Shown piece after piece: positions 24,399 through 55,896 of a stretch of DNA of 55,896 nucleotides; position 1 is the first letter of the stretch, and every line of letters starts with the position of its first letter. The stretch covers positions 1 through 55,896 of the forward strand of contig LCJH01000008.1 in the NCBI GenBank assembly GCA_000999595.1. Reading direction: 5' to 3'. Under the pieces are notes generated by a model. That model saw only the letters and a program-made list of their open reading frames with translations, had not been told where the DNA came from and did no database searches. The translations under genes were made by a program, and so were the position numbers. This stretch comes from Microgenomates group bacterium GW2011_GWA2_44_7. Its GTDB lineage: Bacteria > Patescibacteriota > Microgenomatia > GWA2-44-7.

Positions 24399-24407
24399 AA
24401 GCTAATG

Positions 24408-24480
24408 AGCCGAGACCGGGGCTCGAACCCGGGACCTACGCTTTACGAAAGCGCCGCTCTACCAACTGAGCTATCTCGGC
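24408..24480 (-). tRNA. tRNA-Thr (anticodon CGT)
   Basis: Minus-strand fold: GCCGAGA-TA-GCTCAGTTGGTAGAGC-G-GCGCT-TTCGTAA-AGCGT-AGGTC-CCGGGTTCGAGCCCCGG-TCTCGGC-T. Confidence 0.85.
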
Positions 24481-24501
24481 GTATCGCGTTAGACCTGAAA
24501 A

Positions 24502-24798
24502 TTAACCCCTTTCTCTTAAATATATTCTAGCACTAATTATTTCTTCAAGTAATTTTTGTGCGCCACTAGGATTATTTCTCACCACTTGCATGAAAACTGT
24601 GGAAAGCTGATTAAGGCGGTTAGTAACCGCTTGGTAACTTGCCAGTATCCGGCCCTGACGTGATCGCTTCCGATAGGTAATAAATGTTTTAAGCCGTTGC
24701 CACTCTCCAGCGGCTATTTCTCGCTCCAAACTGGAGTCGGTATCGTCTTTTTGTGTCTCGGATGTTTCCGTAGATTCTCGAGTCTTATCTTTTTCCAT
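24502..24798 (-). CDS. Hypothetical protein (acidic N-terminus, helical C-terminus)
   Basis: 98-aa ORF with no recognisable motif. Co-oriented with its neighbours. Confidence 0.4.
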   Translation of the reverse strand: MEKDKTRESTETSETQKDDTDSSLEREIAAGEWQRLKTFITYRKRSRQGRILASYQAVTNRLNQLSTVFMQVVRNNPSGAQKLLEEIISARIYLRERG

Positions 24799-24853
24799 AA
24801 GTCAGCTAGTCGATGGTACGAATTGTGATCTACCTTAACCGTAGAAACTGTAT

Positions 24854-25198
24854 TTAATCAGCCACAATTTCATTTTGTTCAGAGTAATATGCCGGAGAGG
24901 TGACAACCACGTATGATATGTTTCCTTCAATAAAATACTTTTGACCTGGTTGGATTGTAAGTACATCACCCTCTTGAAGCTCATAAGGCATATTTTCAAT
25001 CGTAATAGTTCCACTTCCTTTAGTTATATAAAAAAGTACGTGAAGGTCATGTTCTATAAACTGTTCTTTTTCTCCAGACGGATGCCTCCCTTTTACTTCA
25101 ATGTAAGCCGCACTAATTGCTTTTGAAGAAGCAGGATAGCTGTAAATAGTTGTAAATTCTCTCGTAATTAACTTTGCGTCGTTCTTGGCCACTTTCAT
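24854..25198 (-). CDS. Cupin-domain protein
   Basis: 114 aa. GRHPSGEKEQFIEHDLHVLFYITKGSG...GDVLTIQPGQKYFIEG fits the two-motif cupin barrel. Confidence 0.65.
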   Translation of the reverse strand: MKVAKNDAKLITREFTTIYSYPASSKAISAAYIEVKGRHPSGEKEQFIEHDLHVLFYITKGSGTITIENMPYELQEGDVLTIQPGQKYFIEGNISYVVVTSPAYYSEQNEIVAD

Positions 25199-25341
25199 AG
25201 CTGTTTATTATTGTAACTTTCGGAGCTGGGAGAGCGTACTGGGCTCGAACTCGCCTCGCTTCGCGGTCGAAGCGGGCCAATCAAAGTATATCACTTCTGA
25301 TTTGACGCCTCAGCTTAACATTCCAAAGACCAAAGAAACAC
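25199..25341 (-). repeat. Intergenic element copy R1 (5' of the cupin gene)
   Basis: Blocks ACTTTCGGAGCTGGG (25216-25230), hairpin 25253-25277, GGGCCAATCAAAGTATATCAC (25274-25294). The distal block is degenerate. Confidence 0.75.
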
Positions 25342-25815
25342 CTAGGAATTCAGAGCTTCTCTAATTTGATTAAGTAAATTTTCGTAATCCTTGTACAGAA
25401 ACGTATTTAATCCAGCTGTTTTTGCTGCCTGAATATTTTCAGGTGCATCGTCCACATATAGTATTTCATTAGGACCTAATTTGAGGTGAGAGGCAACTAA
25501 CCCATACGCCTCAGAGGTTTTTTTATCTGTATTCATTTTTTTAGCTGACAAAACCTCTTTAAACACCGGCTGGAGATACGGCTGAAATTCGGGAGAATCT
25601 TGAATGACATCACTGGTAAAAATATAAACAGGGATTCTGTCTTTTAGAGATTTATAAAAATCCAAGAGCCCAACATTCAACTCAAAAAAGTCAAGCGCAT
25701 TATAGCTTGGTTTTTCAGACAGTTCTTTGTGCAGAGCATTCAGACTACCTTGATAGCTCTTATCTTTAGGGAATAACAAAACTCTGGAAAAATCACTGAC
25801 TATTGCTTTGATCAT
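25342..25815 (-). CDS. HAD-superfamily hydrolase
   Basis: N-terminal IKAIVSDFSRVL (DxS variant of motif I) and C-terminal ILYVDDAPENIQAAKTAGLNTFLY (motif IV). Confidence 0.7.
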   Translation of the reverse strand: MIKAIVSDFSRVLLFPKDKSYQGSLNALHKELSEKPSYNALDFFELNVGLLDFYKSLKDRIPVYIFTSDVIQDSPEFQPYLQPVFKEVLSAKKMNTDKKTSEAYGLVASHLKLGPNEILYVDDAPENIQAAKTAGLNTFLYKDYENLLNQIREALNS

Positions 25816-26009
25816 CTCTTAACTTTTACTTTCTCTTTATTTCTGTCACTTTCGGAGCTGGGGAGCGTACTTCGCTCGAACTCGCTTCGCGGTCGGAGCT
25901 GACTCGCCTCGATTCGACGATCGAGTCGAAGCGGGCTTATCAAAATATATCACAACAAAATTAGGTTCAGAACTTTCAGCCTTAAAAGAACACCTTCACC
26001 TAAGATCAT
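25816..26009 (-). repeat. Intergenic element copy R2 (5' of the HAD gene), internally chimeric
   Basis: CACTTTCGGAGCTGGGG 25847-25863. A second CGGAGCTGA at 25894-25902. Hairpin 25906-25936, GGGCTTATCAAAATATATCAC 25933-25953 and TTCAGCCTTAAAAGAACACC 25975-25994. Confidence 0.75.
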
Positions 26010-26750
26010 TTAAAGAAATCTAAAACTCGAAAAGACCTGGTTAAATGCTTTGGCGAAATCTACACCATATTCAGGAGAATCTGGTTGCAAATTGCCAGGG
26101 TTTTCGGATCCATACGTGAGCACGTAATATTTTCCGTTTTTATTAAGGATTGTCATTCTATCTTCTCCCTCAGAGTCTCCACTTTGTGAATAATTATGGA
26201 CAGTAATACCACCAATCACGCTGTCTGCAATACGAGTGTATTTCGGCGCAAAGTTAGGGTTACTCCAGATTTCTCCTACCTTGAGTGAATAAATATCATC
26301 CAAAAACGTGTCAAGTCCTGAAGTTTTGCGGGTGACTACGCTAAGTTGATTGGTGGGTCGGTATGACTCGGTTCCAGCAACTTGTAGGGTAATTAGTAAT
26401 TCTTTATTGTAATACTGTCCTTGATAAATCCCGCCCTGAACCACGAAATTGTCTGGGTAATTAAATGTAAATGCACTAAAGGGATCTGTATACAATTTTC
26501 CACTCATAGCTGTCTGGGAGGCGGGCAAAGAAGAAGGACTGGATTGTATCTGACTAGTTTGCTGCTCTTGAAGCTGGTTGAGCTTTTGTTGTAGTTGATA
26601 ATTTTGGTAACCAAAATACACTAGCCCCCCGGTCATAAGAAGAAATACAAGACCGACAACGATTATTAAAGGTTTAATACTTTGTTTTACGGGGGCCGGA
26701 GAAGAAGCCGGTTGAGTAATTGTTGGTTGAGGTGCAGATTGTTCTTCCAT
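26010..26750 (-). CDS. Hypothetical membrane-anchored extracytoplasmic protein
   Basis: Pro/Ser/Gln-rich N-terminus, one TM segment (LIIVVGLVFLLMTGGLVYFGY), then a ~170-aa domain of unknown type. Confidence 0.5.
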   Translation of the reverse strand: MEEQSAPQPTITQPASSPAPVKQSIKPLIIVVGLVFLLMTGGLVYFGYQNYQLQQKLNQLQEQQTSQIQSSPSSLPASQTAMSGKLYTDPFSAFTFNYPDNFVVQGGIYQGQYYNKELLITLQVAGTESYRPTNQLSVVTRKTSGLDTFLDDIYSLKVGEIWSNPNFAPKYTRIADSVIGGITVHNYSQSGDSEGEDRMTILNKNGKYYVLTYGSENPGNLQPDSPEYGVDFAKAFNQVFSSFRFL

Positions 26751-26963
26751 AATTTCAGTTTACTCTGTTTCTCGTTTCTGTTGCAAACTGTCCATTTCTT
26801 TCGCTTTGGAGCTGGTAACCGTACTTCGCTCGAACTCGCCTCGATTCGACGATCGAGTCGAAGCGGGCCTATCAAAGTGTATCACGCGAGAGTCGGGTTT
26901 AGAACCTTTAACATTAAAAGAACACTTTTGCATACCCAATTTCGCAGTACTTCAAAAACCTTG
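26751..26963 (-). repeat. Intergenic element copy R3 (5' of the hypothetical gene)
   Basis: CGCTTTGGAGCTGG 26802-26815, hairpin 26838-26868, GGGCCTATCAAAGTGTATCAC 26865-26885 and TTTAACATTAAAAGAACACT 26907-26926. Confidence 0.75.
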
Positions 26964-27815
26964 TTAAGACTTAACCGATTTGGTAAGGTAATCACGGTCT
27001 GCCTGTGTTATCCCTTCCATGTCGTTGGTCGATACTATTTCATCAAATAGTTTTATGTAAGCATCAATAGTGTTTGATAATGCCGTTGTATATGATTCTT
27101 TATTGTGCCCTTCTGGTACTGTTTTTTCTAACATATTTAGAATCTCTGGAGTGAATTTTGCTTCGAGACGCCTGTTCCCTTCATTCACTAATCCCAATTG
27201 ATAGCAGGCTAACCTATTCAAAACATTACTCCGCATGTATTCGATAGCGTCCCTTGCTTCCCACAGTTCACCTCTCTTAATTTTTCCATGTGTATAAACA
27301 ATCCAACCCCAAAACCTATCTTCAAAGTATTGGAGATTGTCTGCTGCAGGTGAAACGTCTTCGGTAACCCCTAAACAAGCTTGTTTCCAACTATTTAATT
27401 CGCCTGTTTTATCAAGAACTATAAATGCACCTTTCCCTTTAGCCACAGGTTTTAAATCTTCAGAAATTTTGTACTCATAATCAACGTGAATAGGATAACT
27501 GCCTATATAAAAAACAATTATTTGATTTGGGTTTTTAAGATGAGTAGCTGGAAACTGGGTTGCAACTTCAGCAATGCCTTCTCTTAGTTGTTGATGGTCT
27601 TTTATAACCGTTTCTCTTTCTTTAGTCGGAACAATTAAGTTGATGTCCAAATCTGAATATAGATCGGGAGATCCGTTAGCAAATGAGCCTGTTAAATAAA
27701 TCCCTTGTACCCGATGATCTGCGGCCAGTAAAGCTACAGCTTTCTGTAGGATTTGATAATGTTCCGGAAATTTCTCAAGTTTTTCTATCGGTAAAGAGAC
27801 TGATTGTAAATCCAT
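26964..27815 (-). CDS. Nucleotidyltransferase-domain protein, aminoglycoside 6-adenylyltransferase (ANT(6)/AadK)-like architecture
   Basis: GSFANGSPDLYSDLDINLIV (NTase G-S...D.D). The C-terminal helical region FWGWIVYTHGKIKRGELWEARDAIEYMRSNVLNRL resembles the AadK family. The substrate is not inferable. Confidence 0.55.
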   Translation of the reverse strand: MDLQSVSLPIEKLEKFPEHYQILQKAVALLAADHRVQGIYLTGSFANGSPDLYSDLDINLIVPTKERETVIKDHQQLREGIAEVATQFPATHLKNPNQIIVFYIGSYPIHVDYEYKISEDLKPVAKGKGAFIVLDKTGELNSWKQACLGVTEDVSPAADNLQYFEDRFWGWIVYTHGKIKRGELWEARDAIEYMRSNVLNRLACYQLGLVNEGNRRLEAKFTPEILNMLEKTVPEGHNKESYTTALSNTIDAYIKLFDEIVSTNDMEGITQADRDYLTKSVKS

Positions 27816-28060
27816 GTAACTTATTGATGGTTAATATAAATAACTTCTCACTTCTGTTAGTAGTCGTCACTTTCGGAGCTGGGACCGTAATTAACTCGGA
27901 CCTGCCTGCCGGCAGGGCCTATTTGGCCAGGACGAGTATATCAAACAATCTCTACTCGACCCAGATTTCTCACTTATCACTAAGATAAAAATCGGTCCTC
28001 GCTATTACATAACAGCTGATTAAATTCTACAACTTCAGGCTTTAAAAGAACATTTGAAGA
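27816..28060 (-). repeat. Intergenic element copy R4 (5' of the nucleotidyltransferase gene), most divergent
   Basis: CACTTTCGGAGCTGGG 27868-27883, palindrome CCTGCCGGCAGG 27905-27916, GGGCCTAT...GAGTATATCAAAC 27915-27946 and TTCAGGCTTTAAAAGAACAT 28034-28053. Confidence 0.7.
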
Positions 28061-28099
28061 TAAGGTCTGTCAACAAATGGGGTAAAATTAGTTTGCTAT

Positions 28100-28453
28100 A
28101 TGAGCAAATATTTCCATATGATCTGGTATTTCTCCCTTCCGATTATTTTTCTGATTGTTATTGTTCACTTTTTGAAAGATATTACTCAAGACATCCTTAA
28201 GATTCATACTTTCTTAGACTTGCTCGGAAATGTAAATGAAGATTTATCAGTATTTCCACCATTCATCAGACAAATAATTGTCGCTTTAGGATTTATTTCA
28301 ATTGGAATTGAAGCGTTTCTAATCGCGGCAATACCTAAAGTCATAAAAAATAAGGAAAGTTCAAAACTCGAAAAGTATGTAATAGCCTCTCTTTTATTTT
28401 TGGTAATTTATTTCTTATCTGTAATTCTAATGGATCCACGCTATCGTCTGTGA
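28100..28453 (+). CDS. Hypothetical small membrane protein (3 TM)
   Basis: 117-aa ORF with hydrophobic segments. No motif recognised. Confidence 0.45.
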   Translation: MSKYFHMIWYFSLPIIFLIVIVHFLKDITQDILKIHTFLDLLGNVNEDLSVFPPFIRQIIVALGFISIGIEAFLIAAIPKVIKNKESSKLEKYVIASLLFLVIYFLSVILMDPRYRL

Positions 28454-28608
28454 AATTGTTACAATCCTCCGCCGAGAATAAAATTAAACTACCGAATGAT
28501 CTCGGAGTTTATTCGCCTGTGGCGGAGTGAACGAACCCTTTTTAGGGAGCTGGCAGCACAAAATACTAGTTAGTGATCTGTCTTAGTCGCATGGACTAAA
28601 ATAAAAAA

Positions 28609-29421
28609 ATGTCAATAGAAATATTGTCTTGGAATATTTTGAGTGGTGGTTTTAAAGATTACGGTAGTCCAGAAAAAAGACCTGAGCGAATTGATGGATT
28701 AGCTAGTGTTATCAAAGAGCTGAAGCCAGATATTGTCAGTTTAGTTGATACCCATAGATGGACAGACATATTTACCGTCACCCAGCTTAAACAAATTTTT
28801 GGATATCCTTTCGTTCAACCAATAAAACTGGATGATGAAAGATTAATTGGGATAGGGCACGACAACGGCGTTACCGTTTTCTCTCAAATCGCCGGAACGG
28901 AAATGCAAACAATTTGGCTAGCTACCCGAAATGCTATTAAAACTAAAGTTGGCGGAATAGATATTTTTACTATTTATCTTGATGACGTAAATGAAGATAC
29001 CAGGATAAAGCAAATAAAAGCAGTTTTAGAATTGGTAGACATCTATACCCCTACAATAATTACAGGTGATTTAAACACCTTTGACCGTGGCGATCTGGCA
29101 CAAACCAACAAACAGTTAGAGGTATTAGGTTATAAGTTCCCTGGACCTATGAAAAGTATGAAAAGATCATTAAATGAGATGAAACGGGGAGAGGTAACAA
29201 AAATACTTGTTAACGCTGGTTTTATTGATATGGGTAAAGGAAAAGGTAACACTGTTCCGGCAAAGTTATTTCCGCTTCCCGTAAATGATCCAGTACTCAG
29301 ATTAGATTATGCTTTCGGAAACAACCTAATAAAGCTAGAAGAATTCAAGGTTCTAACTGACGAAAAATACGGAAATCTATCTGACCACTATCCGATTTGG
29401 ATGCGAGTTTCCAGTTTGTAA
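28609..29421 (+). CDS. Endonuclease/exonuclease/phosphatase (EEP) family protein
   Basis: SWNILSGG at the N-terminus, GDLNTF, and LSDHYPIW at the C-terminus. Confidence 0.75.
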   Translation: MSIEILSWNILSGGFKDYGSPEKRPERIDGLASVIKELKPDIVSLVDTHRWTDIFTVTQLKQIFGYPFVQPIKLDDERLIGIGHDNGVTVFSQIAGTEMQTIWLATRNAIKTKVGGIDIFTIYLDDVNEDTRIKQIKAVLELVDIYTPTIITGDLNTFDRGDLAQTNKQLEVLGYKFPGPMKSMKRSLNEMKRGEVTKILVNAGFIDMGKGKGNTVPAKLFPLPVNDPVLRLDYAFGNNLIKLEEFKVLTDEKYGNLSDHYPIWMRVSSL

Positions 29422-29567
29422 CCGACAGGTATTTTTTCTTAAGGTCGATTCCAGTATCTGGTCAATAATTTTCTAGGCTAACAATTTGAGATGCAAAACA
29501 AAGCCTCGGACTCGAAAAAGTCGAATTTATTAAGGAAAATAGTAATGTTTTGAATTCGATTGCCGTA

Positions 29568-29641
29568 TGGAGCGGGATACGGGAGTCGAACCCGTCTTTA
29601 TACCTTGGGAAGGTATCGTTGAGCCGCTCAACTAATCCCGC
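29568..29641 (-). tRNA. tRNA-Gly (anticodon CCC), CCA encoded
   Basis: Minus-strand fold: GCGGGAT-TA-GTTG-AGCGGCT-CAAC-G-ATACC-TTCCCAA-GGTAT-AAAG-ACGGG-TTCGACT-CCCGT-ATCCCGC-T-CCA. Confidence 0.85.
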
Positions 29642-29904
29642 ATGTTTTTGAGGTACACTTCGAGCCTTCTTTTGATAAAACCTCTGCCGAAACCTGTTTT
29701 TAGCTGACCTTCTCGGCGGATTGAATCTGCTTTACAAAGGCATGCTTCATAGTATACCAATTTTAACTTGTCATATCTTTTTGTAGATGGAACTTCTTTT
29801 AAACGGTGTGAGGCAATCCTCCCTCTTAGATCAGCAGTAGAGCCTACATAAAACATCGACAATTTACCCTTGGCAAAACACTCTAAAACGTACGTATAAA
29901 ACAT
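29632..29904 (-). CDS. GIY-YIG nuclease-superfamily protein (COG2827-like small ORF)
   Basis: FYTYVLEC...LSMFYVGSTADLRGRIASHR...LVYYEAC...REGQLK. The ORF is open from TTG at 29952, but the ATG at 29904 matches family N-termini. The stop codon TAG (29632-29634) lies inside the tRNA-Gly gene. Confidence 0.75.
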   Translation of the reverse strand: MFYTYVLECFAKGKLSMFYVGSTADLRGRIASHRLKEVPSTKRYDKLKLVYYEACLCKADSIRREGQLKTGFGRGFIKRRLEVYLKNMRD

Positions 29905-29974
29905 GCTTTTACCTTGCCCGCCGAAAGTTTCACATTCAGGCGGGTCCGCCAATATACAACTTATTTTTGGCGGA

Positions 29975-30008
29975 GGAAGGTATCGTTGAGCCGCTCAACT
30001 AATCCCGC
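29975..30008 (-). repeat. 34-nt exact duplicate of the tRNA-Gly 5' half (positions 1-34, ending inside the anticodon)
   Basis: 29975-30008 is identical to 29608-29641 (ggaaggtatcgttgagccgctcaactaatcccgc). Confidence 0.9.
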
Positions 30009-54654: not shown

Positions 54655-55389
54655 ATGGAGATATTTGATTTAAAAACAACATTGCCTTTAATCGGGTATT
54701 TCGGCATATTCTTTATCGTGTTTGCAGAATCCGGGTTGTTCTTTGGTTTTTTTCTCCCCGGAGACAGTTTACTTTTCACCGCCGGTTTCCTAGCTTCCCA
54801 AGGGATATTCGATATCGGGACTTTAGCCGTGATCTGCTTTTTGGCAGCGGTACTGGGAGACAGCGTTGGCTACACCTTCGGAAGAAAAGTGGGAAAGAAG
54901 CTATTTACAAAAGAAGATTCTTTTCTGTTTCACAAAGACCACCTAGTCAAAGCAAGACTCTTTTATGAGAAGTATGGCAAGAAAACGATTTTTCTTGCCC
55001 GCTTTTTACCTTTTGTAAGAACATTCGCCCCAATTGTCGCCGGAGTGGGGCAAATGCATTATCCAACTTTCTTAACTTATAATTTGGCAGGAGGTTTAAG
55101 CTGGGGAGTGGGTATCACCCTTGCGGGATTTTTCTTGGGAAGAATAATTCCAGGAGTTGATAAATACTTGCTCCCGGTAATCGTGGTTATTATTATCCTA
55201 TCTGTGTCACCAACCATTTATCACCTATTGAAAGAGAGAAACGCAAACAGCAAAACGAATCCTTGTCGCTTCCTTAAAAAACCTTTTAAGAGTCGCAAAA
55301 CCATTATCCAGAAGTGCAACGACTATTTCACCGTTATGTGCAGTCTCTGTTTGTTCAACAACGACATAGTCATCGGGAAGAATACCTGA
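54655..55389 (+). CDS. dedA: DedA-family membrane protein (3' end uncertain)
   Basis: VFAESGLFFGFFLPGDSLLFTAG, ARFLPFVRTFAPIVAG. After ~55256 the frame reads through sequence antisense to lexA, so the last ~45 codons are probably not genuine. Confidence 0.7.
   Translation: MEIFDLKTTLPLIGYFGIFFIVFAESGLFFGFFLPGDSLLFTAGFLASQGIFDIGTLAVICFLAAVLGDSVGYTFGRKVGKKLFTKEDSFLFHKDHLVKARLFYEKYGKKTIFLARFLPFVRTFAPIVAGVGQMHYPTFLTYNLAGGLSWGVGITLAGFFLGRIIPGVDKYLLPVIVVIIILSVSPTIYHLLKERNANSKTNPCRFLKKPFKSRKTIIQKCNDYFTVMCSLCLFNNDIVIGKNT
55157..55255 (+). repeat. 99-bp exact direct repeat, copy 1 (dedA 3' end)
   Basis: Identical to 55798-55896, offset 641 bp. Confidence 0.9.
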
Positions 55390-55797: not shown

Positions 55798-55896
55798 TTG
55801 ATAAATACTTGCTCCCGGTAATCGTGGTTATTATTATCCTATCTGTGTCACCAACCATTTATCACCTATTGAAAGAGAGAAACGCAAACAGCAAAA
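55798..55896 (+). repeat. 99-bp exact direct repeat, copy 2, terminating exactly at the window end
   Basis: Identical to 55157-55255. Ends at the last base of the window. Confidence 0.9.

Follow-up and report, generated by a model that had tools for sequence, protein, structure and literature searches.

Within a 55.9-kb stretch of contig LCJH01000008.1 from Microgenomates group bacterium GW2011_GWA2_44_7 (the window), an island between tRNA-Gly(CCC) and tRNA-Thr(CGT), both on the minus strand, includes four copies, R1 to R4, of a GC-rich repeat that lie beside unrelated genes. The window originates from a Rifle aquifer groundwater metagenome, and the locus recurs across many samples. Our preferred explanation, to which we give about an even chance, is that the repeats are the terminal modules of single-gene mobile cassettes, inserted by site-specific recombination at a tRNA-like core. 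The evidence comes from the window and from related copies of the repeat in other genomes, referred to below by locus numbers (L038 and so on) where they need to be distinguished.

One end of the repeat, here called the end-module, has a core of 8 bp, CC(A/C)GCTCC(A), preceded by an invariant arm of ~22 bp, TAGGTTCGAGCnAnnTACGGTnn. When 78 copies were anchored on CCAGCTCC, the information content was high from -22 to +9 (TAGGTTCGAGCnAnnTACGGTnnCCAGCTCCA) and then fell at once to background (~0). In an all-against-all blastn comparison of the loci, homology between genomes stopped no more than 3 nt from the core in at least eight pairs (L038/L138, L086/L163, L135/L178, L137/L145, L137/L178, L152/L153, L153/L155 and L097/L143). 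In the last of these, the break is at the downstream core and the upstream end lies ~23 nt inside the invariant arm. As homology between genomes ends at the core, the core is therefore a recombination breakpoint, and its two flanks have independent histories.

The pair L097/L143 also defines what is shared between genomes. These loci have in common a YbaK-type cassette that is 79.7 % identical over 688 nt, extending from the 5′ untranslated region (UTR) through the gene and its 3′ module to the exact next core, beyond which the sequences are unrelated. At the protein level, the 3′ modules of the two loci are ~77 % identical and the 5′ modules ~53 %. For other pairs, the homologous stretch begins at the core, crosses the module and reaches the 3′ end of the gene before it. 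This alignment and the homology in the other pairs therefore identify the unit as core, UTR, gene, module and next core. In the initial annotation each element had been paired with the gene downstream of it. This linkage reverses that assignment, and the element travels with the gene that it lies 3′ of.

Four copies of one element had been reported in the gaps 5′ of the cupin, HAD, anchored-protein and nucleotidyltransferase genes, and they are present there, at 25199-25341, 25816-26009, 26751-26963 and 27816-28099. Only the extent of R4 needed correction; the start at 27816 stands, but the long form found here reaches ~28099 rather than 28060. The gene identities (cupin, HAD, membrane-anchored protein and ANT(6)-like nucleotidyltransferase) were upheld, as was the lack of a copy after the last gene, none being present between the cupin gene and tRNA-Thr. 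Pattern matching of the shared blocks found no further copies elsewhere in the 55.9-kb window. The features of the island are as follows, with the limits of the cassettes predicted from the boundary logic seen in relatives.

29568-29641, minus strand: tRNA-Gly(CCC), the proximal bound of the island; its 3′ end, ...GTATCCCGCTCCA followed by TACGG, resembles the element core.
27816-28099, minus strand: R4, a long-form end-module with its core at 27875-27882; no cassette gene lies before it on that strand.
26808-27874, minus strand: putative cassette 1, with the R4 and R3 cores as bounds; 5′ UTR, ANT(6)-like nucleotidyltransferase gene (26964-27815) and R3.
26751-26963, minus strand: R3, a short-form end-module 3′ of the nucleotidyltransferase gene; core at 26808-26815.
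26806-26967, plus strand: intact antisense small open reading frame (ORF), the only one in the window; 53 aa with a TTG start, LELVTVLRSN[SPRFDDRVEAG]LSKCITRESGLEPLTLKEHF...
25854-26807, minus strand: putative cassette 2; 5′ UTR, membrane-anchored protein gene (26010-26750) and R2.
25816-26009, minus strand: R2, a short-form end-module 3′ of the anchored-protein gene; core at 25854-25861.
25222-25853, minus strand: putative cassette 3; 5′ UTR with GTGACAGAAAT-type repeats, HAD hydrolase gene (25342-25815) and R1.
25199-25341, minus strand: R1, a short-form end-module 3′ of the HAD gene; core CCAGCTCC at 25222-25229.
24481-25221, minus strand: terminal segment past the R1 core, holding the cupin gene (24854-25198) and an ORF of 98 aa (24502-24798); adjacent to tRNA-Thr and devoid of a 3′ end-module.
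24407-24480, minus strand: tRNA-Thr(CGT), the distal bound of the variable island.

Under this core-to-core reading R4 would be an orphan long-form module. A terminal segment without a 3′ module is also seen in L183.

The shared modules listed in the initial annotation were largely recovered. The first, CCCAGCTCCGAAAGTG on the minus strand, is exact at 25847-25862 and 27868-27883 and has one mismatch at 25215-25230 (chance expectation 0.28), and R3, with its core at 26808-26815, carries the variant CCAGCTCCAAAGCG. The third module and the GGCGAGTTCGAGCGAAGTACG block each gave three matches in the window, against 0.00 expected. The distal GTGTTCTTTTAA block, present in R2 and R3 and visible in R4, is degenerate in R1, as had been claimed. 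GC-rich hairpins exist, but their folding on the coding strand is only modestly stronger than that of shuffled sequences (z = -1.4 to -1.8). They are secondary inserts in the arm. All four GC-rich palindromic inserts interrupt the invariant arm at a single place, between GG and TTCGAGC: 27 nt forming an in-frame GC-rich hairpin in R1 (25251-25277), 55 nt with a double hairpin that breaks the small-ORF frame in R2 (25882-25936), 33 nt forming an in-frame GC hairpin in R3 (26836-26868) and 16 nt in R4 (27903-27918). An unrelated GC hairpin ('PARNAFSIADAGG') occupies the same point in a distant homologue, P0120. The insert point may be a preferred target of small palindromic insertions, or the site of a functional hairpin.

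The core is closely related to the 3′ end of tRNA-Gly(CCC). CC(A/C)GCTCCA and ...CCCGCTCCA agree at 8-9 of 9 positions and are thus at most one base apart, and the core of some modules is the tRNA version, CCCGCTCC. Across the junction, L145 and the tRNA-Gly end of the window are alike at 22 of 25 positions by manual count, and past ~16 nt the arm is only tRNA-like. In L146, from a Daviesbacteria genome, tRNA-Gly(CCC) and tRNA-Thr(CGT) are 0.58 kb apart with a single cassette exactly between them. There, the end of tRNA-Gly, ...ATCCCGCTCCA, is followed directly by AAAGTGACAGAAAT... (the AAAGTGACAG-UTR), a glyoxalase-family gene and a module ending ...GGTCACCAGCTCCA (...CCAGCTCCA), which abuts the first base of tRNA-Thr(CGT). 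The two junctions fit an attL and an attR. The synteny of L183 is that of the window, namely Wzy_C, a Big-domain protein, tRNA-Thr, the variable interval, tRNA-Gly, LysM, tRNA-Asp, PolX, LemA, M48 and GatC. The interval from tRNA-Thr to tRNA-Gly contains three cores in L183 and four in the window, and the cargo is wholly different, making this tRNA-bounded interval a hotspot. Finally, a flank of ~135 nt after 'terminal' modules is homologous to the native downstream flank of tRNA-Gly(CCC) in the window, L139 and L086. A core joined to a tRNA and a native-like flank after terminal modules are what recombination between a cassette site and a tRNA 3′ end would be expected to produce.

The ~135-nt flank is at 29418-29567 (minus strand) in the window, 5195-5344 in L139 and 6787-6936 in L086, and it also follows the terminal modules in L136, L145, L150, L156, L165, L167 and L168. 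It holds a decayed arm-like sequence, AGTTCGAGCCA, and ends in the reverse complement of a tRNA 3′-end-like sequence, GGTTCGATTCCCGTCACCGGTAT, that is closest to tRNA-Thr; in L139 and L156 it includes a terminator-like hairpin too. A palindromic arm around the tRNA-Gly core of the window (CCGTAT-CCCGCTCC-ATACGG) is absent in L086 and is not relied on here.

Upstream of the core, the conserved DNA is, on the opposite strand, a small ORF of 38-80 aa. The short form is 38-47 aa and begins (M/L)ELVTVLRSNLRDLVTPDLILQLNALKSHISVESF..., and the long form, to which R4 belongs, is ~80 aa with a 40-aa insertion. This frame bears a clear codon signature of a protein-coding gene. Among 29 ungapped short-form copies, the synonymous fraction was 0.41 in the antisense frame and 0.06-0.23 in the other five, the entropy by codon position in the antisense frame was 0.80/0.49/1.11, and one stop codon was found in this frame against 21-114 in the others. 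The copies, though diverged, thus combine an open frame with excess synonymous change and variable third positions. The first codons are the invariant arm itself, and what looks like an NTG 'start' comes from the CA of ...CTCCA read in reverse complement. Over the first 28 nt (arm and core) not even third codon positions vary, and there is therefore a constraint at the DNA level on top of the coding constraint.

In the window, the R1 frame is open (from 25206) with a degenerate C-terminal part. The R2 frame is disrupted by the 55-nt insert, though the C-terminal part (LSKYITTKLGSELSALKEHLHLRSF) is still legible, and R4 is a pseudogene, with the 16-nt insert and an in-frame stop, whose relatives encode a protein of ~80 aa. 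The long form has 125 database homologues of 56-124 aa; in many genomes of the candidate phyla radiation (CPR) its annotation is 'hypothetical protein'. Over the family and these homologues, the ORFs range from 38 to 124 aa. When 1.84 billion representative proteins were searched with a profile, no more than 60 clusters were found, of 47-164 aa, and a larger parent protein, such as the N-terminus of an integrase, was rejected as none of these clusters exceeds 164 aa. The small ORF had no match in Pfam, PHROG, NCBIfam or the sequences in PDB. Its AlphaFold model has five helices (predicted local distance difference test score 75) and no Foldseek match in PDB.

The small-ORF subtype marked by '...SFAAAYQ' is followed by a conserved AbrB/SpoVT-like gene in L152, L153, L155, L134 and L140 (for example, L152 856-5523; see also L179 2236-6873), and in L152 it is near the gene for a ~1555-aa protein. 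LPD38 (polyvalent-protein) domains were found in 2 of 144 surveyed neighbouring ORFs. Some copies of the element may be on phage-like or conjugative elements of CPR bacteria.

The family was collected in several scans. A first scan of a genome collection used a pattern specific to the window and gave zero matches. The DNA pattern scan of species-representative genomes (one per species), with a pattern more specific than the one used on metagenome contigs, gave 48 matches, of which 45 were true copies according to a hidden Markov model of the element. Metagenome contigs scanned with a degenerate pattern gave mostly chance matches and ~10 true loci, and the scan of viral contigs (IMG/VR) gave one, uninformative, locus. 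Almost all matches are from Patescibacteria (Woese-, Ames-, Davies-, Collier-, Gottesman-, Roizman-, Shapiro-, Blackburn- and Woykebacteria, Paceibacterota, Nomurabacteria, Saccharibacteria and others). Two to four copies are found at many loci, oriented alike, spaced at 0.6-1.1 kb and each adjoining a different small gene, often with several copies per 8 kb. The same element subtype adjoins unrelated genes in different genomes. The 39 downstream proteins that were scanned cover ~50 Pfam families, and the cargo (NUDIX, HAD, the YbaK-type editing domain, Bro-N, ANT, APH, GNAT, glyoxalase, VanZ, alpha/beta hydrolases, DNA alkylation repair and others) is diverse and made up of typical accessory genes.

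Typical copies are also present in metagenome-assembled genomes (MAGs) titled 'uncultured Gammaproteobacteria/Pseudomonadales' (binchicken, SRP co-assemblies), namely L141, L143, L144, L148, L150, L154-L157, L163, L165, L170, L176 and L178. Some of these are near-identical to copies from Pacebacteria or Nomurabacteria. Either the titles of these records are wrong or the element crosses phyla.

Under the preferred explanation, a cassette would consist of CCAGCTCC, an A-rich 5′ UTR (often with 10-11-nt GTNACAGAAAT repeats), the cargo gene and the end-module, running up to the next CCAGCTCC, with the end-module made up of the core, the ~22-bp arm and the opposite-strand small ORF. Cassettes would insert by conservative site-specific recombination at the 8-bp core, into either the tRNA-Gly(CCC) 3′ end or the core of a cassette already present, and repeated insertion would build head-to-tail arrays between tRNA-Gly(CCC) and tRNA-Thr(CGT). 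A circular cassette, if formed, would join ...ACGGTTACCAGCTCC to its own AAAGTGACAG... 5′ end. As a by-product, each cargo gene would come to be preceded by the end-module of the previous cassette, and this module may supply transcription (TGnTATACT in the window copies). As no recombinase was found, we infer this mechanism, including its chemistry, its enzyme and a circular intermediate, from the anatomy of the elements. We put forward more tentatively, as somewhat short of an even chance, the wider proposal that Patescibacteria own an undescribed integron-like form of gene capture, with a site within the first codons of a small ORF, a tRNA-Gly(CCC)-like core, a recombinase encoded elsewhere or acting in trans, exchange across deep CPR lineages, and stacking between tRNA-Gly(CCC) and tRNA-Thr(CGT).

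Several observations weigh against the preferred explanation. Neither tyrosine nor serine recombinases were found in the window or in ~58 related loci using regular expressions, phmmer and a Pfam survey of 144 neighbouring ORFs. The search covered the 55.9-kb window, 8-kb stretches around ~58 copies and 20 kb around two long-form genes; its phmmer part, with approximate queries for XerD and resolvase, serves as a screen and does not prove absence. Within 10 kb, neither a recombinase nor a replication gene was found. No circular form and no precise internal empty site were observed, and the flanks of the core at cassette-cassette junctions are not mutual inverted repeats. The similarity to the tRNA is short (8-16 nt), and L146 supplies the only clean attL-type junction at tRNA-Gly. 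In the window, tRNA-Gly keeps its native flank and the array starts 1.5 kb away, behind two genes on the opposite strand, while the last genes (cupin and the 98-aa ORF) lack a 3′ module. Lastly, the explanation assigns no role to the small ORF, whose frame is broken in R2 and R4 and C-terminally degenerate in R1.

The main rival is homologous recombination between modules. The small ORF would then be a multi-copy native gene family whose modules serve as portable homology, and cargo would be swapped or accumulated by ordinary homologous recombination or gene conversion within a tRNA-flanked island, with no dedicated site-specific system. This would account for the lack of a nearby recombinase and for a small ORF that is under purifying selection like a real gene. 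Moreover, the modules offer 120-240 nt of good homology, and R2 and R3 share a 95-nt block of 83 % identity, opening with 33 identical nt of the hairpin insert, that suggests recent gene conversion. However, breakpoints would then be expected anywhere in the module, and those observed are within 3 nt of the 8-bp core in each pair compared, with conservation falling to zero right after it. The likeness of the core to the tRNA-Gly 3′ end, with one cassette abutting that tRNA exactly at its CCA, is a further point against this rival, which we regard as unlikely. A selfish module, that is, a tiny mobile element that comprises a small ORF and a tRNA-like end and goes in 3′ of genes in the manner of a MITE (miniature inverted-repeat transposable element) or a miniature integrative element, with the cargo genes as bystanders, is improbable. 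It is in keeping with the multiple copies per genome, the wide spread in the CPR, the near-identical 30-nt ends, the annotation of the long form as a stand-alone hypothetical protein in many genomes and the one copy in an IMG/VR contig. On the other hand, the module has no terminal inverted repeats (end-to-end inverted alignment was no better than for shuffled sequences in 4 of 4 copies, which removes the MITE-like option of the initial annotation), and no target-site duplications were noticed on reading the junction sequences. Only the core end is sharp, the other end grading into the 3′ end of the preceding gene with homology continuing into that gene, and whole core-to-core units including cargo are common to different genomes.

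A promoter and structured leader for the gene directly downstream, as set out in the initial annotation, is the reading that fares worst, its chances being slight. All four window copies carry an extended -10 (TGATATACT-like) at 36-45 nt upstream of the core; across the family, 24 of 76 copies have a motif of this class, an enrichment over the 2.7 expected from shuffles. In arrays a module precedes every cargo gene, in L146 and L132 a module is directly upstream of a tRNA gene, and GTGACAGAAAT-type repeats are common to the cassette 5′ UTRs. Yet two-thirds of the copies lack the -10 motif, and where TGnTATACT is present it sits at two fixed positions that correspond to subfamilies and coincides with KYIT or EYIK codons. 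A scan with the sigma-70 consensus found no site in the elements and no excess in the region. The conservation is codon-periodic on the other strand, and the module co-varies with the upstream, not the downstream, gene. As for a structured RNA, RNAalifold on 16 copies gave a single 4-bp helix of four invariant pairs (-3.6 kcal/mol) with no compensatory changes. Rfam returned only tRNAs, for the window and for 14 related loci at gathering thresholds and for the region of interest at E≤10, in line with the initial annotation, which did not recognise the element as any described RNA family. ARAGORN found no tRNA or transfer-messenger RNA (tmRNA) gene at the elements, and a resemblance to a tmRNA 3′ end (CCAGCUCCA) was set aside because the T-arm geometry is unfit and no tmRNA model matched. 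A promoter role in this genome is possible, but it is not the defining property of the family. Of the options offered initially, that of a repeat marking gene-cassette boundaries was right in spirit, the element being portable and found beside unrelated genes, while the RNA and promoter option was not borne out.

Among known systems, the arrays resemble those of integrons and of clusters of attC sites lacking integrase (CALINs). As in these, single, mostly promoterless and unrelated accessory genes (ANT, APH, GNAT, glyoxalase, Nudix, cupin) are arrayed in the same direction, and behind each comes a conserved site that marks the exact cassette boundary with its outer end and tolerates variable hairpin inserts in its central part. 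Co-oriented single-ORF cassettes bounded at a recombination site, as expected of an integron-type system, were thus found. However, no RYYYAAC-N30-140-GTTRRRY pair was found on either strand of any of the four elements, and the junction here falls between CCAGCTCC and A, not between G and TTRRRY. The element is conserved in sequence over >100 nt, whereas attC is conserved only in structure. Unlike in integrons, the site encodes a small ORF, the core is like a tRNA 3′ end and the arrays lie between two tRNA genes. No intI was found, as a tyrosine-recombinase motif or XerD homologue, in the window and ~58 loci, nor did one appear among the most frequent Pfam families of the 144 neighbouring ORFs. 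CALINs are also arrays without a linked integrase and so the missing integrase is not decisive by itself.

Xer-dependent modules (integrative mobile elements exploiting Xer, IMEX, and the pdif modules of Acinetobacter plasmids) likewise have small cargo without a recombinase and short conserved sites, and a host recombinase is presumed to act on them. However, pdif sites are 28-bp XerC/XerD sites in alternating orientation, whereas the sites here are direct repeats; these are also unlike dif sites and have no obvious dyad symmetry at cassette-cassette junctions. MITEs and the REP/BIME repeats (repetitive extragenic palindromes and bacterial interspersed mosaic elements) are similarly short, multi-copy and intergenic with GC-rich hairpins, but the element differs from them in its lack of terminal inverted repeats, its codon-level constraint, its one sharp end and its link to cargo.

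Tycheposons of Prochlorococcus are tRNA-targeting integrative elements that build islands (bioRxiv 10.1101/2020.12.28.424599). Those islands share with the present one a flexible region at conserved tRNA genes in a streamlined genome, tRNA 3′-end-like repeats scattered in the island, successive insertions that appear to push older ones inward, and 'plug-in' cargo. In contrast, tycheposons are several kb long with their own tyrosine recombinase and often replication genes, while the units here are 0.6-1.1 kb with one gene, and the repeat, unlike a plain partial tRNA, joins a tRNA-like arm of 30 nt to a small ORF. An element-encoded integrase, as for tRNA-targeting islands, was not found in the window or ~58 related loci. 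The element lacks at least one defining feature each of an integron, an integrase-bearing island, a MITE and a riboswitch. In the literature searched, no description of such a cassette system was found, and of the published systems consulted the island built by tycheposons is the closest analogue.

The genomes of CPR bacteria (Patescibacteria) are tiny and, to our knowledge, few mobile-element systems have been described in them, and little is known of how they acquire and trade accessory genes. If the preferred explanation is correct, one-gene cassettes stacked at a tRNA hotspot would be a concrete and searchable vehicle of gene exchange in the CPR. With the core-plus-arm motif, cassettes can be collected from metagenomes in the way that attC sites serve for integrons, and such a collection would catalogue the flexible gene pool of the CPR (Nudix, HAD, the antibiotic-modifying ANT, APH and GNAT, and others). 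It also poses the questions of which enzyme acts on a tRNA-like core without a linked integrase, and why the site doubles as protein-coding sequence.

Some further observations concern the island and the cassettes. A small GIY-YIG nuclease gene (29632-29952) is bracketed by an exact 34-nt direct repeat (29608-29641 and 29975-30008) made of the 5′ part of tRNA-Gly(CCC). The arrangement has the look of an insertion of its own at the 5′ half of the tRNA gene, and related GIY-YIG genes are near the element in L038, L161, L155 and L178. A long-form small ORF beside tRNA-Gly and followed by two genes on the same strand is seen in the window (27859-29465, plus strand) and in L183 (13396-14988), with a tRNA-3′-like fragment next. 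The two genes encode, in the window, a membrane protein of 117 aa and a phosphatase of the EEP family and, in L183, tRNA_bind and EamA; the arrangement may represent a second, oppositely oriented, kind of unit.

The cassette 5′ UTRs contain three or four tandem 10-11-nt units of type GTNACAGAAAT (GTGACAGAAAT GTACAGAAAAT TACATTAAAT ...). These were seen at 5241-5285 in L146, just past the core in L138, L154, L141 and L105, and at 25815-25853 in the window. Their helical-phase spacing suggests a protein-binding array or a translation signal. At the end of the window, an exact 99-nt direct repeat (55157-55255 and 55798-55896, 641 nt apart), the second copy of which ends at the last base, may be an assembly artefact or a true tandem duplication.

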